64,000 bases of DNA from the IMG/VR virus record IMGVR_UViG_3300001598_000046, positions 1 through 64,000 of that record; one strand, 5' to 3'. The stretch is from a virus (taxonomy: Duplodnaviria > Heunggongvirae > Uroviricota > Caudoviricetes). The notes beneath the pieces were generated by a model. That model ran no database searches and was not told the DNA's origin. It saw only the letters and a program-made list of their open reading frames with translations. Shown here piece by piece: positions 6,324 to 63,198 of the stretch. The position numbers and the translations under genes were made by a program. Numbering within the stretch: the stretch's first letter is position 1; every line of letters begins with the position of its first letter.

Positions 6324-6395
6324 TAGGAGGGGTTGGTTTTGATCTCCTACACTTATATATAACAAATGATGATAAAAACTTTAGTCATTTTTATC
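6324..6395 (-). promoter_or_regulatory. 5' leader cassette of gene 6104..6313: hairpin (CTTTAGT loop) - ATATATAACAAA box - hairpin with GGGTTGGTTTTGAT loop
   Basis: Stem TAGGAG(6324-6329)/CTCCTA(6344-6349) with 14-nt loop; box 6355-6366; stem GATAAAAA(6371-6378)/TTTTTATC(6388-6395) with loop CTTTAGTCA. Confidence 0.45.
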
Positions 6396-6542
6396 CGAAT
6401 TTCTTTCGATATTCATACATTGTGGCTCCATCAAACTTGCATTAAGTGGTCGCATATGATAATTACAATAGTTATTATAATGATCTCTATATGGACACAT
6501 TGTGCAATCACCACGTTCTCTATTTTGTGCCATTATCTTATA

Positions 6543-7874
6543 CTAATTTATCTTTGATACCGCATCAAATAATACATCAGGATTAATATTATATTTGACC
6601 TGATTACGCTGCATTTGTTCAATTACTGATTGGAGAATTTGGCTGATACGCGCTATTGATAATCCCTCCTGAGCAGCAATCTCTTTTGGTTCTAATTCAC
6701 GTGGCATACCAATACCAAACTTCTTGAGGAACACTGAACGATCTCTTGGTTTGACACCATCCAATAATTTATCAAGACCATTCTTGAATATATCATATGC
6801 CTCGGCAGCTTCCATATCGGAAACGTGGTCATCCTCCATATTCAATATATCACTAAACTTTGTATCATTATCATCACCGATTGGTGCATCAATATCCAAT
6901 GTCACCTCCTTACGATATGATCCATACTTGAGTTTATCATTATATATATCCGACTTTGGTTTCTTAACCAATCGAGAATAATTATCTATCTCAATCAAGA
7001 TATATGCGCGGATCCACATAAATGCCACAGAGTTGAATGTGGCATTTTTGACATTATGCTTGACCCAAGCAATAACATCATTTCTCATAAATGGTTTCCA
7101 AGTTATTGATGACCAATTTGATGGGATTGGAGTAGCCTCCATATCCTTCAATTCATCATCATTCTTTTGTTCTGTTGATTCGGCAATAGCAATAGATGCG
7201 AAGGCTTTGACAAATTTTTTTCGTATCCCACCATATTTGAGGTATTGTTGGATCTTATTAATAATTTCACCACCATTGGCATTTTCAGGTAATTCCTCCA
7301 ATGCTTCTAACATATCTTCCTTGAGTTTGGCTCTATTTGGATCATATTTTTTGAATGATTCAATCAGGCCATAATTGCCGGCGGAAATAAGTTCCTCCAA
7401 ACTCAAACCCAATCCCTGATATCCTTTGGCAATACTGATAACAGTTTTAAGGTTCATCTCAATAAGTTTATCTCTATTCTCCTCACAATATTCAATATTA
7501 TAGTTATTACCATTCTTATCATATGCCTTACTTACATCACGAAAATATTGTTGTAATGTTCCACGTTCAGCATCAGGGAGCATAGCCTTACTCGTTAATG
7601 CTTCTGCCGCAGAGGATAATGGAATATCATTACTGAGACTATATCTAATAACCGCCGATATATAGAATGATGCATCGGTTTGTGGCTTGAGCTTTATATA
7701 TTTGTTATATGACTCATACAAATCCGGGAGTGAATCAAAAACCGCTTCATTTGTTTTATCTTCATACTCATCAATGAGTTCAACATTGTTCTTCTTTAGA
7801 TTGTCAAACTTCTTCTCAAAAGTTTCATAAACCATCTCATATCTTTCGTATTTTTCATATAACAAATATATCAA
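6543..7874 (-). CDS. RNA polymerase sigma-70 family factor (regions 2 and 4 present, insertion between 2.2 and 2.3)
   Basis: Region 2.2 GNYGLIESFKKYDP; region 2.3/2.4 FNSVAFMWIRAYILIEI..RLVKKP (cf. FSTYATWWIRQAITRAI..RTIRIP); region 4.2 HTH FGIGMP..EIAAQEGLSIARISQILQSVIEQM. Confidence 0.65.
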   Translation of the reverse strand: MIYLLYEKYERYEMVYETFEKKFDNLKKNNVELIDEYEDKTNEAVFDSLPDLYESYNKYIKLKPQTDASFYISAVIRYSLSNDIPLSSAAEALTSKAMLPDAERGTLQQYFRDVSKAYDKNGNNYNIEYCEENRDKLIEMNLKTVISIAKGYQGLGLSLEELISAGNYGLIESFKKYDPNRAKLKEDMLEALEELPENANGGEIINKIQQYLKYGGIRKKFVKAFASIAIAESTEQKNDDELKDMEATPIPSNWSSITWKPFMRNDVIAWVKHNVKNATFNSVAFMWIRAYILIEIDNYSRLVKKPKSDIYNDKLKYGSYRKEVTLDIDAPIGDDNDTKFSDILNMEDDHVSDMEAAEAYDIFKNGLDKLLDGVKPRDRSVFLKKFGIGMPRELEPKEIAAQEGLSIARISQILQSVIEQMQRNQVKYNINPDVLFDAVSKIN

Positions 7875-7889
7875 GTCATTACAAAATAT

Positions 7890-10800
7890 TTAGTCATTAT
7901 TATCGGTTTCTGGAATTGCCTCACAATGAATGACTTCCATATCAACTTCATTATTATCCAAGAAGCCTGCCAACTCAAATGTGTGTTCGTTTGCGCCGAG
8001 TTTTTCGAGTTCATCCTTTTCTTTCCATAAGAGCTCAACTTTCTCAAGTTTTACGATACCCTCCTTATTTGGTCTCGACATTTTGACAAGACACTTGAAT
8101 ATCTCTTCGAATTTCTTACGGATCGTTTCCATTGTATATTGCGCCATATTAATCTTGACTCTATCATCAGATTCTTTGCGAGCATAACTCATTGCATAGT
8201 TACTAATGAAATTCATCACATCCACCTTCTTGACCTTATCATATTGGCAGAAATCATATATATGGTTCATATAGTCTTGAATTGGAATATCCAAACGATG
8301 GTTCTTCTCATTATATACAAGATTAATAAGAAGTTTGATACGTTTGATGGCTGCAAAATTGAATGAACGATTCTTATTTCTACAAAAATCAAAAATATCC
8401 TTAATATCTTCTACCATATATTGTTTTGACATACTTACGAAGATTGGAACCACCTTTTCGAATACTTCAATATTCTTAACAATCATTACCTTTTTATTGG
8501 CATCCTCCTTCCAATCATCTCCCTTACGGATCTCATAAAGACCCTGAAGAACATCGTGGTAGATTGACAAACGATCCTCAGTAATGAGATCCATCAACTC
8601 CTCAACATGTGATGTATTGGCTGCCATTCTATCATCATACGCAAGCTTAACCATATTTTTGAGATCAGAGAATATCTCACCATCCTCAAGCTTGAATCCA
8701 CCCAAATCTTTTGATGTTACCTCATAACCATAAGCCATCATACCCTTCATAAGTACCGGTAATTGCTGGACATATTCTCTATATTTGCGCTCAAAATATA
8801 TGACCTTATAAGCGATTTCATTGAGGTAGTATTTATTTTCCACCTCATTATATTCAATAAATTTATTATCGTGAATGATTGATGCAACCAATGAATTATA
8901 CTTATATTCAATAGGGTTACGTTCGATCATTGAGTTACATAAACGAAGAATGGATTGCACATCTTTTATCTCTTCATCATTCAATTTGAAGTTCATTTGT
9001 CTAAATTTATGGATACTACGACTATTTCCATCTGCATCATTTTTTGAGATATATAGACGAATGAATAGGTCATTTGAACGAAGACGATTGGCAAACTGTT
9101 CAACCTCCTGAGGCATCATCAAATCATCAAAATAGATATTGAATCTGAATTTATCCAATATATCCACACCCACGGATAGATAGTTTGAGCACATAAGAAT
9201 TTGTGTATCCTTAATTGTCTTCTCAAAGTTCACATCATCCATAAACTCCTCGCCAAGATTCGACTTCTTGTAATATTTGAGGTTAATTTCATTGAACTCA
9301 CAATACTCATGTTCCATAAAATATTGGACAGCTGCTTTGACCTGATCGGAGAATAACGTACCTTTATTGGTAGGGAATAGTACGCGCCGACCCTCATATA
9401 TATCTTTAGCCATTGCGCGACACATATGATAGAAGAGATCATTTGGTGTTTCTACCATATTGACGAGGAACTCCTTTTTACGAATATCTTCCTTAATAAC
9501 CTTCAAATGAACTATATCAGGGAAGAATACTGTCTCGCCACTTGGTGTACCCGACATTAATATAATTGGCACTTCAGTATTACGGATCATCTCAACAATT
9601 TTTGACATTACTGGACGATACTCAGATTGGAACATCAAGTGTGACTCATCAATAATGATGTAATCAAAACCATTAGCCTTGATATCCATCAAGTTCATAT
9701 ATGAGAACTTATCAATGGTCATACTAACACCATTTGTCATATCCAAACGTGGTTTGCGCGATCCATACGAATAATACCAATCTTTCTCACCTTCAACCTT
9801 TGATTTGATGGTTGACGTAAATGGCATAACCATAATGACTTTCTTGCCATCTTTGACAAGGCTCTTAATCATCTCAGTCTTACCAACACCGGCACCCGCT
9901 TCAATCAATGTTACTCTCCCAATATTATCAAGCAATTGCCATTTGATATTACCCAAATACTCATCTTTTGTTATATAGAAGGTCTTATTGAATTTTGATT
10001 CATGAATAAGTGTTGGATTATCAATTTTATCAACACTATTGAATAATGAACCTTCATCCAACGAAGTATCCTGAATATTGAGTTTGATCTTGAAGCCGTG
10101 TTGAGTGTTAAGTCTATTCACAGCCCAAACATCAACTGGTTTCTCGTGACGTGCTGCCGTTACACAGTCTGCCTGCAACTCCTTATCCGAAATATTATTC
10201 GAACATACCATACGGAGATACTTATATCCTTGCTCCAATCCATACAACTGCACCAACGTATTGGCCAAACGCCATCTTTCGTGGTGCTTATAGTGAACCT
10301 TATTGTGTGTATCAGTTGTGAGTTCCGCAGCCTCCTTAACATCAATCTTCAAATCATCACCATTATCCTCTTCAAACCATTCCCAACGCTTAAATATCTC
10401 CTTTAGATCAGGATATGTAACCCAATCAATATCAGGATGTCCAAGATCCTCAACATTATCGAAGTTAATATATATGAAATCTTCGAAAAATCTTGTACTG
10501 ATCATTGGATGAGCATCATAACCAATGAATGCACCTTGTTGTGGTTTGAACATTGCAAGGTCCATCCACTTCAATAAATCATCCTTACCAAACCCAAGTC
10601 TTTCCATTGCACTCAGGCAAGATATATATACGAATGAATATTTGTGGCGGAAGTTGGTAAGATATAGGAGTTTCTTACGGTGACCATCCTTTTGATCGGC
10701 CTCTGCCACAGTAATTTTGGTATAGATATGGAGGCCCTTACCTGAGCTTGATAGTGTTGCCCCCAAGAACCAGTTACATTTATGTAGGCAATTGAATATA

Positions 10801-11219
10801 TGTACTTTAAGTTCTTTTGCAATAACCTCATCCTTAATATCCATATCAATCACCTGAAAACCATTCCAAAGTTCAAATGCTTTCTTACCGATTGGTCTCT
10901 CACCATTTGAGGTGCTATAGATGACTTTTCGGTTAATTTTGGTACAATCCTTATTCGTTGGTGAAATAATGGTCTTAACCAACTCCTCCAACGTACAAGA
11001 TATACCTTGTGATTGTTTAATATTCGTGCAAATAGTGGCTTGGCACTCCCTCAAACGTTTACTAAATTGTTCTCTCTCCTCCTCACTACATTCCATATAA
11101 TCGGGGCTTGAGAAGATCTCCTGAGCCCAATGCTGTTTCCACGATAGGCTCGTTGGAGAGTTCATTACACGATATGCTTGTAATGATTGTTCGAGAGTTA
11201 TATCTTTTGGTCCATTCAT
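7890..11219 (-). CDS. bifunctional replicative primase-polymerase (AEP) / helicase
   Basis: N-terminal AEP motif SSSGKGLHIYTKI (SGxGxHxY); central Walker A EAGAGVGKTE and Walker B/DExH IIIDESHLM; 1109 aa. Confidence 0.6.
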   Translation of the reverse strand: MNGPKDITLEQSLQAYRVMNSPTSLSWKQHWAQEIFSSPDYMECSEEEREQFSKRLRECQATICTNIKQSQGISCTLEELVKTIISPTNKDCTKINRKVIYSTSNGERPIGKKAFELWNGFQVIDMDIKDEVIAKELKVHIFNCLHKCNWFLGATLSSSGKGLHIYTKITVAEADQKDGHRKKLLYLTNFRHKYSFVYISCLSAMERLGFGKDDLLKWMDLAMFKPQQGAFIGYDAHPMISTRFFEDFIYINFDNVEDLGHPDIDWVTYPDLKEIFKRWEWFEEDNGDDLKIDVKEAAELTTDTHNKVHYKHHERWRLANTLVQLYGLEQGYKYLRMVCSNNISDKELQADCVTAARHEKPVDVWAVNRLNTQHGFKIKLNIQDTSLDEGSLFNSVDKIDNPTLIHESKFNKTFYITKDEYLGNIKWQLLDNIGRVTLIEAGAGVGKTEMIKSLVKDGKKVIMVMPFTSTIKSKVEGEKDWYYSYGSRKPRLDMTNGVSMTIDKFSYMNLMDIKANGFDYIIIDESHLMFQSEYRPVMSKIVEMIRNTEVPIILMSGTPSGETVFFPDIVHLKVIKEDIRKKEFLVNMVETPNDLFYHMCRAMAKDIYEGRRVLFPTNKGTLFSDQVKAAVQYFMEHEYCEFNEINLKYYKKSNLGEEFMDDVNFEKTIKDTQILMCSNYLSVGVDILDKFRFNIYFDDLMMPQEVEQFANRLRSNDLFIRLYISKNDADGNSRSIHKFRQMNFKLNDEEIKDVQSILRLCNSMIERNPIEYKYNSLVASIIHDNKFIEYNEVENKYYLNEIAYKVIYFERKYREYVQQLPVLMKGMMAYGYEVTSKDLGGFKLEDGEIFSDLKNMVKLAYDDRMAANTSHVEELMDLITEDRLSIYHDVLQGLYEIRKGDDWKEDANKKVMIVKNIEVFEKVVPIFVSMSKQYMVEDIKDIFDFCRNKNRSFNFAAIKRIKLLINLVYNEKNHRLDIPIQDYMNHIYDFCQYDKVKKVDVMNFISNYAMSYARKESDDRVKINMAQYTMETIRKKFEEIFKCLVKMSRPNKEGIVKLEKVELLWKEKDELEKLGANEHTFELAGFLDNNEVDMEVIHCEAIPETDNND

Positions 11220-12113: not shown

Positions 12114-12130
12114 TTATGTATATCAAATAA

Positions 12131-12161
12131 AAAAGGAGGTCCTTTCGGATCTCCTTTTTTT
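12131..12161. terminator. bidirectional hairpin terminator
   Basis: GGAGGTCC tttc GGATCTCC flanked by A-run and T-run, between convergent genes. Confidence 0.5.
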
Positions 12162-12177: not shown

Positions 12178-13425
12178 TTAGAACGGTGCGTCAGCGTCTT
12201 GTGCCTCATTTGCAGGTGCGGCAGGAGCAGCTGGGGATGTAGCTGCAGGTGCGTCATCAACCTTAATGTTCTTCAAGAGGATAAAGTCAATCCATCTCTG
12301 AACCTTCTCAGAAGTCTCAGCGTCCCAAGGCTTGTAAGCAATTTCGTCTTCGATGTTGATAACCTTTGCCTCATTCTTGAGGTAGTCAAGAGCGATACCT
12401 GTCAACGCGCGAACCTTATTGTAGAGCTCAGTACCCTCCTTGATCACCTTACCATCCTTATCCTTGACAGGACCGGCGATCTTAGCAGCAGCCTCTTCAC
12501 GTTTCTTAGCAGCCTTTGCAGTATCTGCATCCTTACGAGCGTTGGCATACTCTTCGAGGATCTCCATCTGTGCCTCGTCAAAGAGTGGAGTACCATCGAT
12601 TTTGCGAATTGGTTCGAACTCGGTTGCGAAATCGCAGGTAGCGTACGAGATGTTACGATCGCGAACCACTGGGTTTGGATCATCACCTGGCTTGACATTG
12701 ATCTCGAGTGGGTAACCAAGCACCCAGCTCATCAGATTGATAGCCTTCTTGCCCTTTTTCTTGTCCTCCTCTGAAGGATACTGCTTAGCCTCGAGCTTCT
12801 CACGGATATCCTTTGGAAGCTTCATCAGCATAATGCGGCCAACCAATTCAGGTTTGTTCTCATCCTCGAGAATCTGAACCAATACCCAAGAAGATGTGGT
12901 ATTATCGAAGTTCTCCTTCGCATAATTGAGGATCAATTTACCGAGTTCAGTGTTCTTGAACTTAGCGTCCCAAGCCTCTTTACCACGGCCCTCAACGGCA
13001 TTGAACTCTGCGAGCATTGCTGCACGCTTGTTTGCATCGTTTGGCCAAGCCTTCATAGCATAGCGATCTGCGAAACCATCGAGTGCGAGGAACGCCTCAC
13101 TTGATGCCTTGAAGAGTGGGCAGATACGGCGGTTGTCCTTTGTGTCGAGCATACCATTGATCTCGAGAGTTCCATCAGGACCACCCTGGAGATACCAAGC
13201 TGTTTTCTTGATGATTGAACCCTTCGATGTTGGGTTGTACGGATTGAAGATCACTCTGACCTTTGCGCGGTAGATACCATCCTCAGACTTTGAGTCACGA
13301 GGGTGAGTTTTGTACACGTTAGGGTTAGTTTTTTGAGAATCGTTGTTCTCGAATGGATTGCCACCCATAATGTCGCCATCCATCATTGCGTCAAGTACGT
13401 CTTGCTGCTGTTCTTTGTTTGCCAT
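12178..13425 (-). CDS. candidate single-stranded DNA-binding protein (SSB-type acidic C-terminal tip)
   Basis: 415 aa; Pro/Ala-rich flexible linker PAATSPAAPAAPANEAQ followed by terminal DADAPF (cf. E. coli SSB DDDIPF, T7 gp2.5 acidic tail ending in F); locally higher GC. Confidence 0.4.
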   Translation of the reverse strand: MANKEQQQDVLDAMMDGDIMGGNPFENNDSQKTNPNVYKTHPRDSKSEDGIYRAKVRVIFNPYNPTSKGSIIKKTAWYLQGGPDGTLEINGMLDTKDNRRICPLFKASSEAFLALDGFADRYAMKAWPNDANKRAAMLAEFNAVEGRGKEAWDAKFKNTELGKLILNYAKENFDNTTSSWVLVQILEDENKPELVGRIMLMKLPKDIREKLEAKQYPSEEDKKKGKKAINLMSWVLGYPLEINVKPGDDPNPVVRDRNISYATCDFATEFEPIRKIDGTPLFDEAQMEILEEYANARKDADTAKAAKKREEAAAKIAGPVKDKDGKVIKEGTELYNKVRALTGIALDYLKNEAKVINIEDEIAYKPWDAETSEKVQRWIDFILLKNIKVDDAPAATSPAAPAAPANEAQDADAPF

Positions 13426-13518
13426 TTTGTCTGTTTAATTTTTGTGAACTTTTGTTTAGTGTTTAAGATTTGGACTCCGCGGTTCGTCCTTTCTTATAAT
13501 ATATAACTTTTGATTCAA

Positions 13519-13956
13519 TTATTTAGAGCCCCCATCAAATTCTATGGATTTGAATAGATTGATGACGGCCTTTTCTATGGATTTGAATAGATTGATGACG
13601 GCCTTATATATTGGTTTAATTGGAATCTGCAATAGGTGTAGTGTAATGAACAATACGTTAAACATTGGCACCCACCTCAAAAGAACCGCTACCTCCCAAA
13701 AAGTACAAGCAGATTTTTCTATAACATCATCTGATGAGAATACCTCGTGTAGCGTATATCTGCGACCACACTTCCTCCAGTATGTTAACCAGCAATAAAA
13801 ACTCACAAGTAAGCCAAATACAGGGCTTGTAGCCAGTACTCCAAGGATAATTAAGATTTGTTCTATTGTCATAGTGATATATTTTTGGTACAATATAATA
13901 TATAAAGTATTGTGAGAGTTTTTAGTTCTTACAATTGCAATGTTTTTGCCTGTCAA
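13519..13956 (-). CDS. membrane protein with C-terminal in-frame 11-aa tandem repeat
   Basis: 145 aa; TM-like SPVFGLLVSFYCWLTYW; C-terminus ...KAVINLFKSIEKAVINLFKSIE... Confidence 0.45.
   Translation of the reverse strand: MTGKNIAIVRTKNSHNTLYIILYQKYITMTIEQILIILGVLATSPVFGLLVSFYCWLTYWRKCGRRYTLHEVFSSDDVIEKSACTFWEVAVLLRWVPMFNVLFITLHLLQIPIKPIYKAVINLFKSIEKAVINLFKSIEFDGGSK
13543..13608. repeat. perfect 2 x 33-bp direct tandem repeat
   Basis: tctatggatttgaatagattgatgacggcctt(t/a) twice; in-frame within CDS 13519..13956. Confidence 0.8.
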
Positions 13957-14380
13957 GTGCTTCCATCTCCGCTCTTACACACTCGGGACGTTTATACCAT
14001 TCTTCCAATGAAATTTTCTCCACACTTTTCTCATCTCGTTCAACCTGTCTTTCATGACCTTTGGCCCAATCATACTCCTCAGTATCAGGATTCCAAATAC
14101 ATTTCCACATATTATCCTTAAATCTCTCATTGCGAGTATCCATATTGGCGAACCAATCATAGTTCTTGGCAAGAAGACGAGCGGCATATACAATCTGCTG
14201 CCAATCATCATAGTCCAACGTATATCCGGGTTGCATATGATCAAGGCACTTAAATGCGTTGTATGCATTCAGGTCGCAGATCCCACAAACACCGTGATAA
14301 CGGAGCTCAATTGATTTATCCTGACAGTTTACGCCACCGGCTGTTCCATTGAAGACTGGAGTATCGTAAAATTTTTCCAT
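13922..14380 (-). CDS. hypothetical Cys-rich protein
   Basis: 152 aa with CGICDLNAYNAFKC and C-terminal HCNCKN. Confidence 0.4.
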   Translation of the reverse strand: MEKFYDTPVFNGTAGGVNCQDKSIELRYHGVCGICDLNAYNAFKCLDHMQPGYTLDYDDWQQIVYAARLLAKNYDWFANMDTRNERFKDNMWKCIWNPDTEEYDWAKGHERQVERDEKSVEKISLEEWYKRPECVRAEMEALDRQKHCNCKN

Positions 14381-14694
14381 TATTCGAAATTATTTTTATC
14401 GTTTGATTTGACTTTGATATTCTTGAGGCTATCAATAATCAACATTGCTATACAACATATTGGTAAGATTGTAATTACACAAATCATTACGATAAAATTA
14501 CCAACAGGTATATATCTGTAATAACTTAGATCTGAAGCCACCGGATGGTCATATTGATCATAGATTACTTTGAACAATAAATCATATAATGAGTACTCAT
14601 CTTGATGCCGCCAATATTCAATCCAACACCATATAATACTGAATATTACCGGGATTACATACCCAATCGATATTATTAATCCAATTGTTTTCAT
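14380..14694 (-). CDS. membrane protein
   Basis: 104 aa, two hydrophobic helices (N-terminal and ICVITILPICCIAMLII). Confidence 0.4.
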   Translation of the reverse strand: MKTIGLIISIGYVIPVIFSIIWCWIEYWRHQDEYSLYDLLFKVIYDQYDHPVASDLSYYRYIPVGNFIVMICVITILPICCIAMLIIDSLKNIKVKSNDKNNFE

Positions 14695-18069: not shown

Positions 18070-18330
18070 ATGACCTTTCGTGAATTTATGAGATTGGCCC
18101 ATTCAGAAAATGGAGCACCAAGCTCGAAACGTATTTATGGTGGGATCGCGGTGGTTGCTGTTCAACTATGTCTGATGGCTGCAGTAGTATTGGCATTCGT
18201 TAACCACGCAGAACTATCAACGGTATTGAAGGAGTTGTTGGAGGTTGATTTGATTACCGGAGCATCATTACTTGGATTGAATAGTGTTACTAAGATATTC
18301 GAGAAAAAAGAAAAAGGAACTCAAGAGTGA
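18070..18330 (+). CDS. small membrane protein
   Basis: 86 aa, hydrophobic IYGGIAVVAVQLCLMAAVVLAFV. Confidence 0.4.
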   Translation: MTFREFMRLAHSENGAPSSKRIYGGIAVVAVQLCLMAAVVLAFVNHAELSTVLKELLEVDLITGASLLGLNSVTKIFEKKEKGTQE

Positions 18331-18342
18331 GTTCCTTTTTTT
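18316..18342 (+). terminator. rho-independent terminator
   Basis: GGAACTCA agag TGAGTTCC then TTTTTTT; stem overlaps stop codon of 18070..18330. Confidence 0.6.
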
Positions 18343-18555: not shown

Positions 18556-18945
18556 TTATATTATTCTTTCAATATCATATGAAGTAGTTATGGTTCGTGA
18601 TGAATGATATCTACGTCCTACCTGTGCTTGTCTATAAGTCGTACCATCAACCTCAAATTCACGATTATATCTATGACGAACACCATTCTCATTGTATGAA
18701 ACTTCGCCATATATAACATACCGGGTTTCTGATGCTCGGCCACCAACAGGATGCCAATTGCTGGAGATGTCCGAGTATTTATCAATCACTAAAAACTCGT
18801 ATTGAGCCTCAGCAGCACGCTTCGCTTCATGTTCTTTGTGGATATTCCCGAGATAATTCATACCCATTATGAGTCCAGCGGAGATCGCTAGCACCACAAC
18901 GATGCTTATTACCATCGAGATGCATTTTATAAAAAAAGTCCTCAT
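18556..18945 (-). CDS. membrane-anchored protein
   Basis: 129 aa, N-terminal TM ISMVISIVVVLAISAGLIMG. Confidence 0.45.
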   Translation of the reverse strand: MRTFFIKCISMVISIVVVLAISAGLIMGMNYLGNIHKEHEAKRAAEAQYEFLVIDKYSDISSNWHPVGGRASETRYVIYGEVSYNENGVRHRYNREFEVDGTTYRQAQVGRRYHSSRTITTSYDIERII

Positions 18946-18951: not shown

Positions 18952-19061
18952 TTGTAGAAGGGGTTGGTTTGGTATCTTCTACAAATATATATAACAAAAG
19001 TTTGAAAAAACTTTAGTGTTTTCAATAACAAACCCTCGAAAAACATTTAGTCTTTCAAGGG
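18952..19061 (-). promoter_or_regulatory. leader cassette upstream of 18556..18945: two CTTTAGT-loop hairpins, ATATATATAACAAAA box, hairpin with GGGTTGGTTTGGTA loop
   Basis: Stem TTGTAGAAG(18952-18960)/TCTTCTACAA(18975-18984), 14-nt loop; box 18985-18999; stems TTGAAAA/TTTTCAA (19002-19025) and CCCTCGAAA/TTTCAAGGG (19033-19061) with loops aactttagtg / aacatttagtc. Confidence 0.45.
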
Positions 19062-19159
19062 TTTATTTTTTGTCATTTGAATTTTCACGCATTGCACCAT
19101 ACATTATGATGCCAAGAGCAATAAATATTGCACCATACTGGATAGCGTCATACCAAAAA

Positions 19160-19333: not shown

Positions 19334-19353
19334 AGTTGTAGTTATTAATTTGT

Positions 19354-19441: not shown

Positions 19442-19531
19442 ATATATTAAACATCTCCCTCAGAGTCAATCATAATTACAAAAAGACCACCGAGGAGAAA
19501 CCCAAATACAAATATTGCGAAATACTCCATA

Positions 19532-29570: not shown

Positions 29571-29620
29571 ATATATATAACAAAAGTGGAGGAAACATTT
29601 AGTAGTCTCCTCCACTTTTT
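29571..29620 (-). promoter_or_regulatory. intergenic cassette: conserved-loop hairpin terminator plus ATATATATAACAAAA box
   Basis: Box 29571-29585; stem GTGGAGGA(29586-29593)/TCCTCCAC(29608-29615), loop aacatttagtagtc, T-run. Confidence 0.45.
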
Positions 29621-32675: not shown

Positions 32676-32748
32676 ATGATTTTTATATTACTTACAATAG
32701 AATATATAGAAATTGGATGGCTTTTTTATCAAACCACCCAATTTTTTA

Positions 32749-35748: not shown

Positions 35749-35846
35749 AGTTTCTTAATAACGATCTAATTAAATATATGGTATGGTGGGAGATATTTTA
35801 GAAGATTCGTAAGGAATTTTATTGATTCAGGTTTATTATATATACA

Positions 35847-45620: not shown

Positions 45621-45672
45621 ATATAGATAACAAAACTTCCCGAAATCTTTAGTAATTCCGGGAAGTTTTTTT
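45621..45672 (-). promoter_or_regulatory. intergenic cassette: conserved-loop hairpin terminator plus ATATAGATAACAAAA box abutting ATG
   Basis: Box 45621-45635 directly adjacent to start codon at 45620; stem CTTCCCG(45636-45642)/CGGGAAG(45659-45665), loop aaatctttagtaattc, T-run. Confidence 0.45.
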
Positions 45673-47253: not shown

Positions 47254-47441
47254 TGTCCATTGACGACTATTGGTGCATCAACTAAGCAGTACGTTTCATT
47301 ATTTTCTCGGAGTTTCCGGTATAGGCAACCAAGACATGCGCAGGTGGTGGAGGGTCTTTTCCTTGTTCTTAATATATCAAATGGATCATTCATTTTTAGT
47401 ATGTTTACTCGATTTTTAGTTGCTATCGTACCTTATTCAAA

Positions 47442-48815: not shown

Positions 48816-48865
48816 TATATATAACAAAACCCCCTAAAACATTTAGTAGTTTTAGGGGGTTTTTG
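48816..48865 (-). promoter_or_regulatory. intergenic cassette: conserved-loop hairpin terminator plus TATATATAACAAAA box
   Basis: Box 48816-48829; stem CCCCCTAAAA(48830-48839)/TTTTAGGGGG(48850-48859), loop catttagtag, T-run. Confidence 0.45.
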
Positions 48866-49370: not shown

Positions 49371-49384
49371 AATCTAATATATGG

Positions 49385-49852
49385 TTATCTCCAAAAAACT
49401 TTAGTAACGTTTCCCCAAATACCATCAATTTTTGCCCACATCTCTTGATTGGTTGTTTTGACATTAAGTGGACCTTTTGATTTGATATATGGCCCGAATT
49501 TGAGGTAATCGAAGTAACCGGTTTTGACTGGGCAAACATCAACAGAATGCTGTCTACCACTATACCATCCAACCTTCAATTTTGGATGAGTCTTTTTGAC
49601 ATATTGTGCAAGATCCGATATTTCGTGTGGGTAGGCGTCACCACCCATAAATCCTACACAAGTGATCTCTTTATGTGCTGCAATAAGAGTATCCAATACA
49701 GTTTCATTTAGCTCAGTACCAACATACTCAGCAAGATGAGGTGAATGACAACCTTTGCAGGCACAGGGGCAGCCGGTAAGATTGATTGCAAGAGTTACCT
49801 CATTTGGAAACTCCTGAAATACAATTTCGACTTCCTGATACTTTGGAATCAT
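49385..49852 (-). CDS. nrdG: radical-SAM activase, NrdG-like (anaerobic RNR activating protein family)
   Basis: 155 aa; Cys cluster LTGCPCACKGCHSP and FMGGDA (cf. NrdG GCxxxCxGC and SGGDP). Confidence 0.55.
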   Translation of the reverse strand: MIPKYQEVEIVFQEFPNEVTLAINLTGCPCACKGCHSPHLAEYVGTELNETVLDTLIAAHKEITCVGFMGGDAYPHEISDLAQYVKKTHPKLKVGWYSGRQHSVDVCPVKTGYFDYLKFGPYIKSKGPLNVKTTNQEMWAKIDGIWGNVTKVFWR

Positions 49853-50255: not shown

Positions 50256-50900
50256 TTATGCTTTATGCTTGATTCTAAATTGTTTCCAATAATTGAGAAT
50301 TGCCGCGCGTGTACTCTTTCGGAAGACTCCCTCCGTGAATACTGCGCGAACCCAATCTTTTGGAGGAACAACGCGGATGGCACCGGTCAAATTTGGTATA
50401 TACATACGCACTCCAAATGCCAAACCAGTATTCTCCAACTGCTGCATCAACCACTCATAATCGAATCTTGACATTTCTTTATTCAATCCAGTCTCCCAAG
50501 TCTTCAGGTACATTGGTTTCCAAATCTCCATAATACGATCCATAATTTGGTATCGAATACGTGGTGGATAATAATGGATATTGAATCCAATGATGCGTGG
50601 TTCACCCTTTTGATTCTTAAATGTACCAAAGAAGATCGTACAAGGTTTTGCATCATAATATTCAAGTTCCTCCTTTGTTGCTGGCTCAAGATAATTGAAG
50701 TATATAAGTTGGCCCGGCATAACATCACGGGGTCCAGTAACCTCGAGATTCTCCTCAAGATATTTACGTTGGCGTCTATCACGGAGCTCAGGAGAATGCT
50801 TATATTCTTTGAATGCCCTTATCTCTCGTATGAGGGAATAATTTTTATCCGGTTTCTCACTTTTTGGAGTAACCTTTTTTTCATTACTGGTTGTTGCCAT
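50256..50900 (-). CDS. hypothetical protein downstream of terminase
   Basis: 214-aa basic ORF overlapping terL stop by 17 nt. Confidence 0.45.
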   Translation of the reverse strand: MATTSNEKKVTPKSEKPDKNYSLIREIRAFKEYKHSPELRDRRQRKYLEENLEVTGPRDVMPGQLIYFNYLEPATKEELEYYDAKPCTIFFGTFKNQKGEPRIIGFNIHYYPPRIRYQIMDRIMEIWKPMYLKTWETGLNKEMSRFDYEWLMQQLENTGLAFGVRMYIPNLTGAIRVVPPKDWVRAVFTEGVFRKSTRAAILNYWKQFRIKHKA

Positions 50901-52746
50901 AAGATGTCAATCTATTTAGATTTGCATTTTGAATCCGTTGCATATCGTTATCAAAATCATACCACGTTTCAATTGGTACTGCACCCACACCAACCTGTGG
51001 TGTATAGTTTTCGTATGGATTATATGTTTCTTCGTCAAATGGTTTGCCAATTTTCTCCTCAAAATCTTCGATAAAGAGTTTATATTGAAGTGTTTTCTTA
51101 ACAAATTCAAGCTGAACTGTTGACATTACCATATCATCGTGGCCAAATGATGCTTTATAATGTTTTGTTCCATCATCACAGAAATTTTCAAGTTCAAATA
51201 TAAACATTTCTGCATCATTACGAATGAAATCTCGTTCATAATCTTCCTGAAATAGAAGGCAATGTGGTGTTTTGTTTCCAGATGTAAGTTTTATACCTTG
51301 CACATATTTTGTACCACCCTCATTATAATACTTAACGAGGCAGTTAATATCAAAGTTTTCGAAACCTTTTGCGTTGGTCAAATCCTTAATATCTCTTATA
51401 AATAATTCACCATAAGTATTATACTCAATTGAAATGAGAGTATGATCATTATTGGCATAAAGGTTCATTACCTGCATTAATGATAATGCATATTCGTCTC
51501 GTGGCACCTGATTTGATCTGAAATACCCAACAGCCACCAAACGTGGACCATATTTACCTTTTTCCATACGATATATAGTCATTACTGTATAGTCTCCACC
51601 CAATCCTTCAGCGATATCAACTGGAATAACAATAAACTCTTTTCGAAGATCGGTCATTGGATTAAAGTCAGGATGCCAAAACCAACAATCAGAATGGAAT
51701 ACACCAAGCATCTCTTTATTGACAAATTTGATTGCATCATCACGGCGAGCACGGAGAATAGCACGTTTTATCAAAGCACTTGATGTAACATCAAAATTAA
51801 TACCAAATTGACCCTCAAATGCCTCCTCAGAACCATAGTTTGCAATCATACGTTGATGCCAAGCCTCATCACGTGGTTCGAAACATTGTTTCTTTGGATT
51901 CCACTCCGGTACATCTTTCCACTCAACCGCAAATGGCGCATAGTCATTCTCACCTAACTTGGCACCCATATATAATCTATAAAAAAGTTCCTTTCCATTT
52001 ACCGTACTCGAAATCATTACACGTGCTGCTGCAGCGGTAAGAGTTGGAAGTACGTGATTATAGAATGGTTCCTGAATATTCTTCTTAATTTTTGCAAACT
52101 CATCGAGTAATGCGCAATGGAATGTAAATGAAATACCGGAATCCATCGTTGTTGCATCAGCCATACAACGACAGCCATTATCCAATACAATCTCACCCTC
52201 ATTCCACTTCTCAACACCAGGTTTGAGGAAGAATGGTATCTCATAAAATATCTTCTTAACCTTATCCAAAATTTCAATCGCAGTCTTGCGTTTATTACCA
52301 AGAACCAACGCATTCTTATCATAATTGAATAAGATATAATGTAACATAAAAATCGCTGATGTGGTGGTCTTACCAGCCTGACGGCAGGAAACCATAATAC
52401 TCATATTATGATCTTCAAGATGTTTGAGATAACGCTTCTGATAATCACGCAGTTGGACATGTTTAATACCCTTTGGTGTCATCAATTTGCAATACTTTTC
52501 AGCGAAATATAATATATTTTTTCTACACTTGAGCCACTCAATTTTTTCTTCATCTGTACGTGTGAATACCAAATTACATTTGAGGATTTTGGTATTGTTC
52601 TCATAAAATGGATTGGCAACAAGTCTCTTACCTTCATCGAGTCCCTTCAGGGCTATATCAAGGACTTCGGTGGTCCACACAACTCTGCGGGCTTTCGCTC
52701 CATCCTTTTCCTCTTTGATAGGATTAAATGCCTGTTTTTTAGCCAT
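50884..52746 (-). CDS. terL: terminase large subunit
   Basis: Walker A SCRQAGKTTTS (cf. T4 gp17 SRQLGKT), Walker B ALLDEFAKI, C-terminal nuclease-sized domain; 620 aa. Confidence 0.85.
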   Translation of the reverse strand: MAKKQAFNPIKEEKDGAKARRVVWTTEVLDIALKGLDEGKRLVANPFYENNTKILKCNLVFTRTDEEKIEWLKCRKNILYFAEKYCKLMTPKGIKHVQLRDYQKRYLKHLEDHNMSIMVSCRQAGKTTTSAIFMLHYILFNYDKNALVLGNKRKTAIEILDKVKKIFYEIPFFLKPGVEKWNEGEIVLDNGCRCMADATTMDSGISFTFHCALLDEFAKIKKNIQEPFYNHVLPTLTAAAARVMISSTVNGKELFYRLYMGAKLGENDYAPFAVEWKDVPEWNPKKQCFEPRDEAWHQRMIANYGSEEAFEGQFGINFDVTSSALIKRAILRARRDDAIKFVNKEMLGVFHSDCWFWHPDFNPMTDLRKEFIVIPVDIAEGLGGDYTVMTIYRMEKGKYGPRLVAVGYFRSNQVPRDEYALSLMQVMNLYANNDHTLISIEYNTYGELFIRDIKDLTNAKGFENFDINCLVKYYNEGGTKYVQGIKLTSGNKTPHCLLFQEDYERDFIRNDAEMFIFELENFCDDGTKHYKASFGHDDMVMSTVQLEFVKKTLQYKLFIEDFEEKIGKPFDEETYNPYENYTPQVGVGAVPIETWYDFDNDMQRIQNANLNRLTSYGNNQ

Positions 52747-53941: not shown

Positions 53942-54317
53942 TTTGGAGATTAAAGATACTCTTCGAACATTCCGACTTGATCCAACCAAAGGTAATTGGT
54001 TTGAGTATATAATATTTGCATTATTCAAAGTTGATGTCCGAGATATTATATCAATCAAAGCACAACTCGGAAAAGCATTTGGTATCCAACCTGACCAACT
54101 CGATAAAATGCCTTTTTGGGAATTTGAAATGTATGTGCAGGAACTTGAGAAACTTGTTAAAGAAGAGAATGATAGGCAGAAGGATGAATACGAGAAATCT
54201 GGTGTTGGTAAAGCTATGCAGATGGCTGATCCAAAGAATATTGGGAAGACTACACAAAGTATGATGCCAAAGATGCCAAAGATGCCGACAGTGAATATCT
54301 CTATGCCAAAAATGTAA
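53883..54317 (+). CDS. hypothetical protein with C-terminal MPK repeats
   Basis: 144 aa; 5' end overlaps previous ORF so true start may be internal; ends MMPKMPKMPTVNISMPKM. Confidence 0.35.
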   Translation: MASKFSSMLKLVLNDSERNNLEIKDTLRTFRLDPTKGNWFEYIIFALFKVDVRDIISIKAQLGKAFGIQPDQLDKMPFWEFEMYVQELEKLVKEENDRQKDEYEKSGVGKAMQMADPKNIGKTTQSMMPKMPKMPTVNISMPKM

Positions 54318-54324
54318 TAGAAAA

Positions 54325-54349
54325 GGGACTCTCATTGAGTTCCTTTTTT
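54325..54349 (+). terminator. rho-independent terminator
   Basis: GGGACTC tcatt GAGTTCC then TTTTTT. Confidence 0.5.
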
Positions 54350-54396
54350 ATTTTATATTACACCCAAATGATCACTGGATTATTATTTATACATAA

Positions 54397-56109
54397 TTGA
54401 TTACAAATATGAATTGCGCAATAAAGAGAATAATTCAATTCCATAATGCATATGTTCCTGGTCCAATTCAAATCAAGAATCAAATGGGTCAGGACATTAC
54501 AACATACTGCCAATATTCTTGGTCGAATGATATGGTATGTTGGACCAATTGGGTTACATATGATATGTATCTCAAAATTTGTGGGCAATTGAAGGATGAA
54601 ACATATATACGTATTCTTATACAGGATTCAATAGGAATTGTTAAGATCCACGATGTTGCTACAGATTGTTATTCCGTGACGTTGGATCTCGATAACCCTT
54701 TTGAGGTAACAATTTGTAATGATAACCTCTTCAATCCTTATGCAAATCTCGATTGTGCCATTAAACTTCAACAACAAATGGCTGATTCTATAATCTGTAT
54801 GTTTGGTATACCCGTATATTATTTTAGAGTTAAGCCAGACCCAACTACAGCTGACTATACATTTAAGGAGTATTTACTTCATAATATTGAATCAGTTAAG
54901 CAGATCAAAATGATGATTCCTGAGGGCACTATGCCAAGTTCAAATCCTAAATTTAATGCACTCGATTTTGATTGGGAGACTGATTGGGATGTTGAGATTG
55001 GTAAAAATGAATTTGCGAGAGCATTTGGAGATGGCCAAGTTCCAAAAGTTCGTGATTTTATCTATATTCCGATGATGAAACGTATGTGGGATGTTAATTC
55101 AGCATATGATGAGAAGAATGAAAATCTTATGTGGATATCAACAACTTGGAAACTTAGCCTTGTTAAGTATGAGGATGCTACAAACGTAAATGGTACTCCT
55201 GAAATGGAAAGCCTTATTGATTCACTCATACCACATACCTACGAAAATACCTTTGGTGAAAAGGAGAGAACATTATGGGAGCGAACAACTGGTTCAACTC
55301 AAATAAAATCTCCTGATCACGCATATACAAATTTATATGATATATCTATGGGAGACGCAATAAGACAGGCGTATTCGAAAAATGAAATAAATATTGTCGA
55401 TTATCAGTACAACCACAATAGTATGGTGGTTACACGTAATATATATAAATTCAAAACACCATTGGCAAAGGTAACATATCAAAAAGGTTATTGTGGTGCT
55501 AATGGAACACTTGCATTTATATTGCAAACAACTGGAACATCACGAGACGAATTAATATGTAGTAATTGTCGTCAAAAAACAGTATGCCCATACTATAGTG
55601 CTGAAGCTGGTGCAAAATGTTCCGTACCATCAACAATTATCAAATGTGGGCCAATTGATGTTAATCTTACACTTAAACCAATTGCTGGTGGTAATTGTTA
55701 TGAGATTTCTTGTGGTGATATAAAGGGTAATCTGAAGCTTTTTGCAAGTTATCTCGTTATCATCCGTTGGAACCGTCAAAATTATACTGTATCGATGGAA
55801 TGTTACGAGCATATACATCGCACAAATATCCCAACATATATGCTCAAACCTGAGATGTACTCATTTAATGCCACACCAACAATATCTGTAACATCACAAT
55901 ATAATCTCGATTATGATATAACGGAAGAGCAAGATATGTTTATCCAAGCATATCCTTGTCTCCTGACAAATATCAAATTATACAATATTGATTTGGGTCG
56001 TGAAGGTGCGATTAAAGAATCTCTTAAATATGTAACACAACATAAAAATATCATAATTAATGACCTCGCTCGTCCAATCGAGAGTGGCCAGGGTTATACA
56101 GCAAGATAA
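54397..56109 (+). CDS. hypothetical protein (570 aa)
   Basis: Long ORF; its last ~63 codons are duplicated as a fragment at 57165..57350. Confidence 0.5.
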   Translation: MITNMNCAIKRIIQFHNAYVPGPIQIKNQMGQDITTYCQYSWSNDMVCWTNWVTYDMYLKICGQLKDETYIRILIQDSIGIVKIHDVATDCYSVTLDLDNPFEVTICNDNLFNPYANLDCAIKLQQQMADSIICMFGIPVYYFRVKPDPTTADYTFKEYLLHNIESVKQIKMMIPEGTMPSSNPKFNALDFDWETDWDVEIGKNEFARAFGDGQVPKVRDFIYIPMMKRMWDVNSAYDEKNENLMWISTTWKLSLVKYEDATNVNGTPEMESLIDSLIPHTYENTFGEKERTLWERTTGSTQIKSPDHAYTNLYDISMGDAIRQAYSKNEINIVDYQYNHNSMVVTRNIYKFKTPLAKVTYQKGYCGANGTLAFILQTTGTSRDELICSNCRQKTVCPYYSAEAGAKCSVPSTIIKCGPIDVNLTLKPIAGGNCYEISCGDIKGNLKLFASYLVIIRWNRQNYTVSMECYEHIHRTNIPTYMLKPEMYSFNATPTISVTSQYNLDYDITEEQDMFIQAYPCLLTNIKLYNIDLGREGAIKESLKYVTQHKNIIINDLARPIESGQGYTAR

Positions 56110-58008: not shown

Positions 58009-58029
58009 ATAGCGCGGTTTATGCGCAAA
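58009..58029 (+). repeat. GC-rich 21-mer ATAGCGCGGTTTATGCGCAAA (copy 3 of 3)
   Basis: Identical to 284-304; followed by partial echo GCGATGTTTATGCGTGC. Confidence 0.6.
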
Positions 58030-60356: not shown

Positions 60357-60358
60357 AT

Positions 60359-62081: not shown

Positions 62082-62753
62082 TTATAATCTTCCAGCAGCA
62101 ATCTTACACTTATGGTAGTGTTCCATTCGTTGCTTGATATTTGTGGTACTATTGATAGAATCGAAAAGCTCTACCAAACGCTTTTCATAATCAGGATTAC
62201 TTGCGTAACGTTTACCTGACTTATTAACATACTTTTTATATAAATCAAATTCATTACCACCTTCCGGGATATAACTATTCACGATTAATTCAACGAATGG
62301 TCGAATCGATTGATCGGGATGATTAAGCCACTTACCCTCGGCCTTGAGTTGTTCAGCCGTCTTACCATCTGGTGTTAGATCATTGAATACCCGATTAGAT
62401 TTTGATGCGATACCTGTGGTTCCAAAATGAGACTCCTGCCAACCCTGAACCAACACAAATCTTATATCAATATTATATTCATCACAAGCTTCGACAATGG
62501 CAAAACCGTGGAGTTCAGATTCAGGAGCAACAGATTTGATGAAGCTGTCAACTTCCATAATAAGATCAGCCTTCGCAGCATTATATTCGATATCAGATTT
62601 ATGCTGATATGCCCAAAGATGATATGGAAGATCCTCTTTTTGAGTGTGTGAATAAGTATATCCTACGGCCGCACCGCAGATCATAAGAACGATGATTGTC
62701 TGAATAATGAGAGCCTTATGTGTGCTCAGCCAATTTGAAAATTTTGTACTCAT
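62082..62753 (-). CDS. endolysin, GH73 N-acetylglucosaminidase-like with N-terminal signal-anchor
   Basis: TM ALIIQTIIVLMICGAAVGY; catalytic region LVQGWQESHFG (cf. FlgJ/GH73 ALESGWG) and YASNPDYEK (GH73 YATDPxY). Confidence 0.6.
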   Translation of the reverse strand: MSTKFSNWLSTHKALIIQTIIVLMICGAAVGYTYSHTQKEDLPYHLWAYQHKSDIEYNAAKADLIMEVDSFIKSVAPESELHGFAIVEACDEYNIDIRFVLVQGWQESHFGTTGIASKSNRVFNDLTPDGKTAEQLKAEGKWLNHPDQSIRPFVELIVNSYIPEGGNEFDLYKKYVNKSGKRYASNPDYEKRLVELFDSINSTTNIKQRMEHYHKCKIAAGRL

Positions 62754-62803
62754 ATTGTTAATGTTTTAGTTATAGTATAATATATATTGTTTACCTAATG
62801 ATT

Positions 62804-63142
62804 TTAGTTCGTTAATTCCAAAGGATCACAAAATAAATCCTCAAGTAATATGAATGGCCATAATGTTACGAAACCTTTTGGAAATCCTCCATAACAAAAA
62901 TGTACAGTTTCAAAAACATTTATACCACATAAAATGTATAGTGGTACTCCGATAATGATTTTCAGTACAAGCTCAATTGGTGATAGTAATGCTCCACAAA
63001 TCACCGCAGTGATTAGCAGGAAGAAAGAAGAGATTGCGAAAATAATGGTTGCGATTGCTGCCAAAATTCCTGCAATGATTGTTAATGGGTATTCGATGAC
63101 TTCGATTATACGTTCACGAATACCAGGTTTGATGCTGATCAT
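62804..63142 (-). CDS. multi-TM membrane protein, holin candidate
   Basis: 112 aa with 2-3 hydrophobic helices, adjacent to the endolysin. Confidence 0.35.
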   Translation of the reverse strand: MISIKPGIRERIIEVIEYPLTIIAGILAAIATIIFAISSFFLLITAVICGALLSPIELVLKIIIGVPLYILCGINVFETVHFCYGGFPKGFVTLWPFILLEDLFCDPLELTN

Positions 63143-63198
63143 AATGGATAATTAATTGATTACATTATATATATAACAAATCTTAATAAAATATTTAG

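Follow-up and report, generated by a model that had tools for sequence, protein, structure and literature searches.

gp28 of the Bacillus phage SPO1 is a phage sigma factor that redirects the core polymerase of the host to middle promoters. The SPO1 sigma cascade is summarised in PMC13401047. Then there are the stem-loops of the T4-like phages RB49/phi1, T4/PST, and KVP40/nt-1, known as promoter-early stem-loops (PeSLs) and PmSLs (Arbiol et al. 2010, PMC2839356; Comeau et al. 2014, PMC4122927). The stem-loop of a PeSL can fall between the -35 box and the -10 box or overlap them (PMC2839356), PeSL modules flank ORFans at points of insertion/deletion (indel) or replacement (PMC2839356, PMC4122927), and degraded and slipped copies have been described (PMC4122927). 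I consider here a recurring intergenic cassette in the DNA of a tailed phage (Caudoviricetes; IMG/VR virus record IMGVR_UViG_3300001598_000046). "The window" is the whole stretch analysed, positions 1 to 64,000 of that record. An initial annotation saw in the cassette a hairpin of variable stem and conserved loop, followed by a conserved box, and likened it to the PeSLs of T4. The likeness stands: the stem-loop overlaps the putative promoter boxes, and cassettes are found where ORFans have been inserted, deleted, or swapped between relatives. The coupling of terminator with promoter that it suggested is supported as well. My reading, whose probability I put at about 0.6, is that the cassette is a promoter with an intrinsic terminator built in. 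As a regulatory element it would be of an ordinary kind, though its promoter sequence, met here in a large uncultured phage, had not been described before.

The cassette itself is real and occurs well above chance. On the minus strand, six junctions give an ungapped alignment of ACTAAA(G/T), then 12-13 nt, then TTTGTTATATATA. A systematic scan for CTAAA-N13-TTTGTTATATATA with up to three mismatches finds 8 matches in the window against 0.38 expected, every one on the minus strand and five of them exact. All six boxes that the initial annotation listed are present on the minus strand at the positions given; its "seven or more" junctions come to six, one of which holds a tandem pair whose upstream copy (19050) has no TATAT. 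A seventh copy of the cassette is degenerate. The 15-mer quoted for the box, ATATATATAACAAAA, is exact at 18985 and 29571 but differs by one base at 45621, 48815, and 63167 and by two at 6353. Searched with up to two mismatches, it gives 8 matches against 1.49 expected, two of them (9966 and 10715) unrelated. The box was said to end 0-45 nt before the start codon. The value of 0 arises at 45621 from an ATG within TATATATG, and if the next ATG is taken there, each of the six sites has TATAT 26-45 nt before the start. The open reading frames (ORFs) directly behind the six cassettes encode 69, 129, 97, 191, 80, and 112 amino acids and have no significant PHROG match; that of 69 has a marginal one only (E 0.0046), to a family of unknown function.

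The cassettes belong to a larger family. CTAAA-N18-TATAT occurs 12 times in the window against 0.51 expected, always on the minus strand, and no shuffle of 100 exceeded 3. With the cassette at 45652, whose -10-like part is TATCT, the family has 13 members. In 12 of 12 matches CTAAA and TATAT are exactly 18 nt apart (17 nt between hexamers), which agrees with the 16-18 nt of bipartite promoters of the sigma-70 type. Relaxing the spacing to 17-19 nt, or permitting T in place of C, adds a single match, intragenic and on the plus strand, and the spacing is thus effectively invariant. Ten of the 12 matches end 7-74 nt upstream of a minus-strand start codon. As to exceptions in placement, the match at 7893 overlaps the annotated TTG start of the sigma gene and those at 47399 and 13925 lie within called ORFs; in each of these cases a downstream start would leave the motif upstream of the gene. 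The minus-strand genes behind the family are those for the sigma factor, an SSB-like protein, and family-B DNA polymerase (PolB), the RNA ligase region, and ORFans without significant PHROG match.

Seven members of the family, those at 7893, 13526, 13925, 35801, 47399, 49404, and 62807, lack TTTG and had escaped the initial annotation. Alignment of the whole family brings out two forms: the six cassette copies read TTTG-T-TATATATA (at 45652, TATCTATATAT), and the other seven have TATATT and no TTTTG. The copy at 63198 has the cassette form by sequence (TTTG and TATATATA), yet no hairpin surrounds its GCTAAA. In five of the six cassettes a conserved G stands 11 nt past the first T of TATAT, a position compatible with a transcription start 5-9 nt after the -10.

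Could the pairing of CTAAA with the box be merely what AT-rich DNA provides? Among the matches listed in a relaxed-pattern scan of IMG/VR, 116 occurrences of TTTTGTTATATATA come from unrelated contigs, and in only 1 of them does [CT]TAAA stand at the right offset, so that AT-rich DNA as such does not account for the coupling. The matches listed in these relaxed scans are mostly due to chance, and the second scan serves as the negative control. Bacterial genomes amounting to 596 Gb contain the exact pattern rarely, in 55 scattered matches of which the plausible ones lie on phage-like contigs; exact-pattern scans of metagenomes and genomes include many chance matches in AT-rich DNA.

What, then, of the conserved loop? 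The initial annotation took it to be a recognition element. On such a reading it would be recognized by a phage protein, in RNA or as a cruciform (for example in antitermination, processing, or packaging), and would be selected apart from the promoter. It is true that ACTAAA(G/T) occupies a loop of 5-8 nt upon unrelated stems in three of the full cassettes and in the half cassette at 19050, that many metagenomic relatives do the same, and that the loops of the cassettes are longer than those of the other terminators in the window. But CTAAA lies 18 nt from TATAT at 13 sites, and at 8 of them there is no hairpin around it. The five that do enclose it comprise three strong hairpins and two weak ones. 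Its position is set relative to TATAT, not to the stem; in two relatives (L250 and L195) it is base-paired within the stem and not exposed in the loop; units of hairpin plus box occur with no CTAAA at all (L203 at 7236, L169 at 726/772); and Rfam has no match in the whole window at gathering score. Because the distance from CTAAA to TATAT is fixed with or without a hairpin, a DNA promoter box is favoured over an RNA element, and the latter I consider very improbable. The "loop" would be conserved because it is the upstream DNA element of the promoter, -35-like and at fixed spacing from the -10-like TATAT.

The TTTT of the box can be understood in a similar fashion. TTTTG goes with the hairpin copies and is missing from the seven copies that had escaped the initial annotation, none of which has a hairpin; the copy at 63198, with TTTG but no hairpin around GCTAAA, is the exception. 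Where a hairpin is present, TTTT would therefore represent the U-tract of the terminator and not promoter sequence. Strong terminators in the window that have no such promoter behind them (12129-12160, 1369-1396, 18311-18340, 42452-42482, 54316-54352) have unrelated loops of 4-5 nt. Among terminator-like sites on the minus strand, the cassettes rank as the strongest. The relatives L169 (726/772) and L203 (2639) have in addition a bidirectional terminator of palindromic sequence, AGATCTCTTGA...TCAAGAGATCT, with TTTGTTATA as its flank on both strands and without CTAAA; in both it is kept downstream of the homolog of gene 39929-42451.

Terminator hairpins were folded and scored one at a time against shuffles, since the length of the loop on its 5' side varies and the stems are unrelated. 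GC-rich hairpins, which the initial annotation placed at every listed site, are indeed strong at 19027-19067, 29582-29619, 45632-45669, and 48826-48863 (-21 to -24 kcal/mol, z -5.6 to -8.6, with a 5' A-run and a 3' U-run) but weak or absent at the others. That at 6371-6395 reaches -6.1 kcal/mol (z -1.4), and that at 19002-19025 is at the level of shuffles (-4.1 kcal/mol, z -0.1). A GC-rich stem, a U-tract, a position after a stop codon, and a fold better than shuffled sequence, the marks of an intrinsic terminator, are found together at 19050, 29602, 45652, and 48846; the weak hairpins at 6384 and 19016 fall short of them.

One might also see in the cassettes nothing but copies of a repeat or mobile element, recently spread and without regulatory role. 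Four copies have about 75 nt in common, including a stem-loop downstream of the promoter, and at one locus (19050/19016) there is a tandem partial duplication. Against this, the stems and outer flanks share no sequence (alignment A2), and conservation of the loop is therefore not due to recent duplication, an explanation that the initial annotation had allowed for. Orientation and distance to start codons are uniform, and the motif is kept at orthologous genes in relatives whose proteins are about 50% identical. The idea of a recent repeat is largely refuted and I give it hardly any credence.

The relatives deserve a closer look. Only loci that share proteins with the window are counted, at 32-60% identity. 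The architecture of cassette or promoter recurs in L429, L431, L013, L169, L195, L250, L001/L012, L203, and L427, where terminators have CTAAA in or at the loop and then TTTTGTTATAT. A hairpin of -10 kcal/mol or lower is present at 11 of 33 sites. Seven of the 8 promoter-like boxes that were not selected by way of CTAAA have [CT]TAAA 12-13 nt upstream, and in 155 kb of relatives CTAAA-N18-TATAT occurs 23 times against 2.3 in shuffles, although the search pattern had itself selected about half of the 23. Three lineages keep the promoter of the SSB-like gene (window 13526, L014 4451, L430 2796).

At both junctions that were compared between relatives, the cassettes go with ORFans and with points of indel or replacement. 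Downstream of the sigma gene, the window has a cassette and an ORFan of 69 amino acids, L429 has a promoter of the same type followed by an unrelated ORF of 63, L430 has a gap of 163 nt, and L014, L015, and L016 run straight to the next conserved gene. The cassettes at 19016 and 19050 lie within a segment of small ORFs 1.85 kb long that measures 273 bp in L014. Between gene 19532-19981 and the 19050 cassette is a locally GC-rich stretch (19081-19531, minus strand) with no ORF above the calling threshold but with a run of tiny ones (about 29-56 amino acids); the whole segment is absent from L014. An Rfam E-value scan of 19000-19600 gave sub-threshold chance matches only.

I propose that the promoter is bipartite, a -35-like (A)CTAAA(G/T) followed at exactly 18 nt by a -10-like TATAT(A/T), and that at junctions where the upstream transcript needs stopping a terminator is nested within it. 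The 5' arm would lie upstream of CTAAA, CTAAA would form the loop of 5-8 nt, and the 3' arm and U-tract would fill the spacer, which a terminator can overlay since no particular sequence is needed there. In the "TTTTGTTATATATAT box" TTTT would be the tail of the terminator, and the TG after the U-tract may act as an extended -10. A single segment of about 45 nt would thus end the upstream transcript and start the next one. In four cassettes the beginning of the new transcript would coincide with, or adjoin, a covarying stem-loop whose loop is conserved and CA-rich. The reader would most likely be the core RNA polymerase of the host joined by the phage's RpoD-like sigma (6543-7874). The family would constitute an early/middle class serving replication genes and ORFans, and the structural genes on the other strand would use a -35-less motif.

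This model might be carried further. If the nesting is itself functional, then termination would be coupled to re-initiation at ORFan modules, either by direct passage of the polymerase released at the hairpin to the overlapping promoter or by formation of an RNA hairpin or DNA cruciform that gates the access of sigma. The cassette, with its CA-rich 5' stem-loop, would then be a portable module, its reader an RpoD-like sigma that the phage itself encodes and whose -35 specificity is new, and a large uncultured family of Bacteroidota phages would have in it a portable means of expression by which to swap ORFans. I regard this extension as doubtful, the odds being well against it.

The second stem-loop, not mentioned in the initial annotation, stands immediately downstream of four cassettes (6384, 19016, 45652, and 48846), beginning at the conserved G that follows the first T of TATAT by 11 nt. 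The stems covary (the first three pairs are those given in Table 1, the fourth is AAGGGAG/CTCCTT) about a conserved CA-rich loop, AT(A)CCAAACCAACCC. Because the MAFFT alignment (A1) misaligned the fourth copy, covariation was read by eye, with no formal count. The element is probably the 5' end of the mRNA, where it may act as a stabiliser, a regulatory site, or an operator. Relatives L250, L427, and L001 have different, unrelated hairpins at this position.

The sigma factor is a natural candidate to recognize the family. Regions 2.1-2.2 occupy residues 125-181, regions 2.3-2.4 residues 276-306, and regions 3-4.2 residues 311-421; with regions 2, 3, and 4 all present, the protein might well recognize a bipartite promoter. 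Regions 2.2 and 2.3 are separated by an insert of about 95 residues (approximately 182-275). Among homologs this insert is highly variable in length and sequence (alignment A3 shows 0 to about 70 residues), and the DNA-reading regions that flank it are near-invariant. Helix 4.2 reads LSIARISQI in the phage protein and VTRERIRQI in SigA according to the alignment, so the positions that read the -35 differ. Helix 4.2 and region 2.3-2.4 are near-invariant across homologs 52-63% identical overall (alignment A3). The family is large, with at least 3665 homologs at E <= 1e-5, and the protein is 48-59% identical in the three relatives that carry the gene (L429, L431, and L013). Comparison with cultured phages gave no close homolog and no relative beyond region 2.

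That this sigma reads the promoter family I take to be slightly better than an even bet. In its favor, the near-invariance of helix 4.2 matches the conservation of the promoter across the phage family, and the motif resembles neither TTTG/TAnnTTTG, the sigma-A promoter of Bacteroidota (PMC9723704), nor TTGACA/TATAAT. Several considerations weigh on the other side, some of them bearing on the proposed architecture as a whole. What is said here of promoter and terminator activity, of the start site, and of temporal class is deduced from sequence. For the downstream stem-loop there are four copies, too few to be firm, and two of them are not significant alone. The sigma gene is itself preceded by a member of the family (7866-7893), so if the phage sigma is the reader, it must first be expressed by way of another promoter or of read-through from the helicase operon; a promoter read early by the host would fit this arrangement more simply. 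The analogous PeSL promoters of T4 are read by host sigma-70 (PMC2839356). The host of the window phage is itself deduced, which makes the argument from unlikeness to host promoters indirect. Finally, the syntenic relative L014, with a sigma 53% identical, has few such sites and has ATATATTTATAT-like strings at many junctions.

An alternative view accepts the same architecture but has unmodified host holoenzyme read the family as early promoters, leaving the phage sigma to a later class such as TTATTATA. A sigma gene behind a family member is what one would expect of an early gene, the family drives ORFans and replication genes in the manner of T4 early and middle promoters, and PeSL promoters are indeed host sigma-70 promoters (PMC2839356). 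Moreover, retention of the motif by phages whose proteins are only 35-60% identical follows if all of them infect related hosts. Yet the motif fits neither of the two consensus sequences just mentioned, and its rarity in bacterial genomes, where the plausible matches look like phage, is not what this view would lead one to expect. The phage sigma has a full region 4 with a recognition helix invariant in the family, and a late promoter that has no -35 would need neither. Furthermore, jumbo phages of this group are reported to have, besides RpoD-like sigmas, a minimal gp55-like sigma and gp33 for late genes (Iyer et al., PMC7824862). Reading by host holoenzyme is on balance unlikely, though it must be taken seriously. 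Two promoter classes would fit an RpoD-like and a gp55-like sigma.

It is also conceivable that CTAAA is the site of a phage activator that takes the place of -35 recognition, as in the sigma appropriation of T4 MotA/AsiA, with host sigma reading TATAT only. The element is centered near -30 to -35, at fixed distance from a -10 of the type TAnnnT; the family precedes replication genes, as is typical of the T4 middle class; and nt-1 has PeSL versions with MotA boxes, the PmSLs (PMC4122927). However, the MotA box is TGCTT, not CTAAA, and one would not expect TATAT(A/T) to be recognized by the sigma-A of Bacteroidota. The scan against PHROGs or Pfam covered about 45 of the 86 ORFs called in the window, itself a part of the genome, and none of these is MotA-, AsiA-, gp55-, or gp33-like. 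I judge an activator of this sort improbable, and return to the phage sigma as the preferred reader.

A different motif, (T)TATTATA(T/A), without CTAAA, is found 6-37 nt before structural genes and the terminase gene. The strings that the initial annotation related to the box and placed before plus-strand starts belong here: TTTATTATATA(TA) is present at 35847 and 11324, but 15900 has a weaker copy, CTTATTATAGAG. Enrichment of TTATTATA is modest (17 against 9.4 expected, and 3 shuffles of 100 reach 17). The plus-strand genes for baseplate wedge and head closure have TTATTATA upstream and no CTAAA. The motif resembles a -10-only promoter of the T4 late type. The two gene classes recall the early/middle and late layout of T4, from which I infer their temporal assignment. 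As to promoters of host type, the Bacteroidota pattern TTTG-N17-23-TAnnTTTG has 9 matches in the window, every one intragenic, and TAnnTTTG is not enriched in it (86 against about 75 in shuffles). A scan of the window for the E. coli-type TTGACA/TATAAT gave chance level. Two perfect 12/12 matches to TTGACA-N17-TATAAT, both on the plus strand, may be coincidence: that at 31055-31083 is antisense within gene 29638-31143, and that at 39942-39970 falls at the start of gene 39929-42451.

Table 1. Genes, putative promoters, and predicted hairpins of the window (hairpin energies in kcal/mol)
Feature	Position	Strand	Remarks
Promoter CTAAA-N18-TATAT with TTTG (6384)	6357..6384	(-)	After sigma gene, before 69-aa ORFan 6104-6313; weak hairpin 6371-6395 encloses CTAAA
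Promoter with TTTTG (19016)	18989..19016	(-)	Before 129-aa ORFan 18556-18945; very weak hairpin 19002-19025
Half cassette (19050)	19020..19067	(-)	Strong hairpin 19027-19067 (-23.9, z -8.6), ACTAAAT in loop, then TTTGTTAT, no TATAT; tandem, 34 nt upstream of full promoter 19016; only three U in U-tract
Full cassette (29602)	29575..29619	(-)	Hairpin 29582-29619 (-23.9), CTAAA in loop, TTTT, G, TATATATA; before 97-aa ORFan 29256-29549
Degenerate cassette relative	32710..32744	(-)	Downstream of PolB; terminator hairpin, loop TTTGATAAAAAAG, then TTTCTATATATTC
Full cassette (45652)	45625..45669	(-)	After RNA ligase gene; hairpin 45632-45669 (-21.1), CTAAA in loop, TTTTG, -10-like variant TATCTATATAT
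Full cassette (48846)	48819..48863	(-)	Hairpin 48826-48863 (-23.6), CTAAA in loop, TTTTG, TATATATA; before 80-aa ORFan 48532-48774
Promoter with TTTG (63198)	63171..63228 (promoter 63171-63198)	(-)	GCTAAA outside any hairpin; separate terminator GGGTTTCGCAAGAAACCC-T6 at 63207-63228, on the 5' side
Family member, CTAAAT-N17-TATATT	7866..7893	(-)	No hairpin; 3' end of helicase gene, just before sigma gene
Family member	13499..13526	(-)	No hairpin; upstream of SSB-like gene 12178-13425
Family member	13898..13925	(-)	No hairpin; upstream of 13519-13956 ORF region
Family member	35774..35801	(-)	No hairpin; 26 nt upstream of PolB gene 32749-35748
Family member	47372..47399	(-)	No hairpin; at small 56-aa ORF 47223-47393 (just inside), upstream of RNA ligase gene
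Family member, ACTAAAGTTTTTT...TATATT	49377..49404	(-)	No hairpin; 7 nt upstream of gene 48888-49370
Family member	62780..62807	(-)	No hairpin; upstream of gene 62082-62753
Downstream stem-loop	6322..6351	(-)	GTAGGAG / loop ATCAAAACCAACCC / CTCCTAT; -8.5, z -3.7
Downstream stem-loop	18952..18984	(-)	GTAGAAG / loop ATACCAAACCAACCC / CTTCTAC; -8.6, z -7.6
Downstream stem-loop	45590..45619	(-)	GTTGGAG / loop ATACCAAACCATCC / CTCCAAT; -8.1
Downstream stem-loop	48784..48812	(-)	GTAAGGGAG / loop ATAAACCAAAA / CTCCTTCAC; -6.1, weak alone
(T)TATTATA(T/A) motif sites	Starts 11324, 15900, 22803, 35847, 54397	(+)	
(T)TATTATA(T/A) motif sites	Starts 1354, 20160, 22699, 50206, 52746	(-)	
Sigma-70-family gene, RpoD/RpoS-like	6543..7874	(-)	Regions 2, 3, 4; candidate reader of promoter family
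DEAD-box helicase	7890-11219	(-)	
SSB-like gene	12178-13425	(-)	
Family-B DNA polymerase (PolB)	32749-35748	(-)	
Large terminase, T4-type	50884-52746	(-)	
Baseplate wedge subunit	37780-39462	(+)	
Head-closure protein	54397-56109	(+)	

The genes of the window (Table 1) are divided by strand, with DNA and nucleotide metabolism and ORFans on the minus strand and baseplate and head-closure genes on the plus; the minus-strand exceptions are the terminase, a gp2-like end protector, and a head-closure protein. Exonuclease, RNA ligase, deoxynucleoside monophosphate and thymidylate kinases, and SbcD-like nucleases are also encoded by the minus strand. G+C content is 32-44%, and neither tRNA nor tmRNA was found in the window. 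By terminase, the closest cultured phages are the Tenacibaculum phages PTm1/pT24 and the Sphingomonas phage PAU, at about 30% identity. A search for near-identical DNA among GenBank phages returned a single intragenic match of 95 nt to Lak phage. This stretch (14349-14443), 80-81% identical to Prevotella Lak megaphages and the sole nucleotide similarity to GenBank phages, falls within or at the junction of genes 13922-14380 and 14380-14694. The host is likely one of the Bacteroidota, because a Shine-Dalgarno-like core precedes only 6 of the 86 called genes and relatives are binned with metagenome-assembled genomes of Bacteroidales (L427, for example, with Muribaculaceae). Bacteroidota lack Shine-Dalgarno sequences (PMC6847099, PMC9723704).

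A second repeated sequence is of interest in its own right. The 21-mer ATAGCGCGGTTTATGCGCAAA, which holds a small inverted repeat GCGC..GCGC, occurs three times, at 284-304 (+), 27568-27588 (-), and 58009-58029 (+), with 0-1 mismatch and 0 expected. Each copy is at a convergent gene junction, between a bidirectional terminator and the end of a gene, and may be a protein-binding site. L014 has a different repeated string, GATCTGCGATTATAC.CGATTTAAA, at similar places.

The motif, CTAAA-N18-TATAT with TTTG optional, defines a promoter concretely enough to be tested across a large uncultured family of phages with RpoD-like sigmas. The hosts of these phages are probably Bacteroidota, and none of their promoters is known. 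Strand and motif together separate replication and ORFan genes from structural genes, an aid to the annotation of operons and temporal classes in metagenomic phages, and the idea that promoter-terminator modules mark the points where ORFans are swapped extends beyond the T4-like phages of proteobacteria. If dependence on the sigma were confirmed, such strong, compact terminator-promoter units could serve as parts for Bacteroidota genetics. There is also a caution in this for those who read motifs: where stems vary and the loop does not, the loop can be a promoter box in the DNA that happens to fall within a terminator rather than an RNA recognition element.

How, then, does the cassette compare with known systems? 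Like PeSLs, it is a short intergenic composite of what are here a predicted strong promoter and a predicted terminator-type stem-loop, with variable stems and conserved promoter boxes. Like them it has a degraded "half" copy and a copy in tandem that suggests slippage (19050/19016), and it is enriched beside small ORFans and at points of indel or replacement. The phages are comparable too, since the window has a T4-type terminase and baseplate genes and a split of early and late functions by strand. A promoter overlapped by a stable stem-loop, as in a PeSL, is found in the three full cassettes with strong hairpins and in the two with weak ones. However, the boxes are CTAAA and TATAT(A/T), not the near-consensus TTGACA-N17-TATAAT of host sigma-70, and the element therefore works like a PeSL without being one in the strict sense. 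It differs also in that no Shine-Dalgarno element is present, that the stem-loop is placed uniformly (with the -35-like box in the loop) whereas PeSLs are spread over five subclasses, that most members of the family have no stem-loop at all, that a second stem-loop follows the promoter in four copies, and that the reader may be a phage sigma rather than host sigma-70.

The middle promoters of SPO1 gp28 offer a second parallel, in that they too are bipartite, have phage-specific -35 and -10 boxes, and stand before replication genes, the pairing of sigma with promoter in the window being that of candidates only. The boxes are different, and the sigma here is long and RpoD-like, with an insert in region 2. 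As for the hairpins, a GC-rich stem (15-18 pairs, -21 to -24 kcal/mol) followed by a U-tract and placed just after a stop codon is what one sees in intrinsic (Rho-independent) terminators, and the 5' A-run makes them symmetric, like bidirectional terminators. Unlike the usual intrinsic terminator, they have a conserved loop of 5-8 nt and a U-tract that runs straight into a -10-like element, features that would be explained by the overlap of promoter with terminator. The kind of element is known; what is new is the consensus of the promoter, the strictness of its spacing, and its occurrence throughout a large family of uncultured phages that has an RpoD-like sigma of its own.

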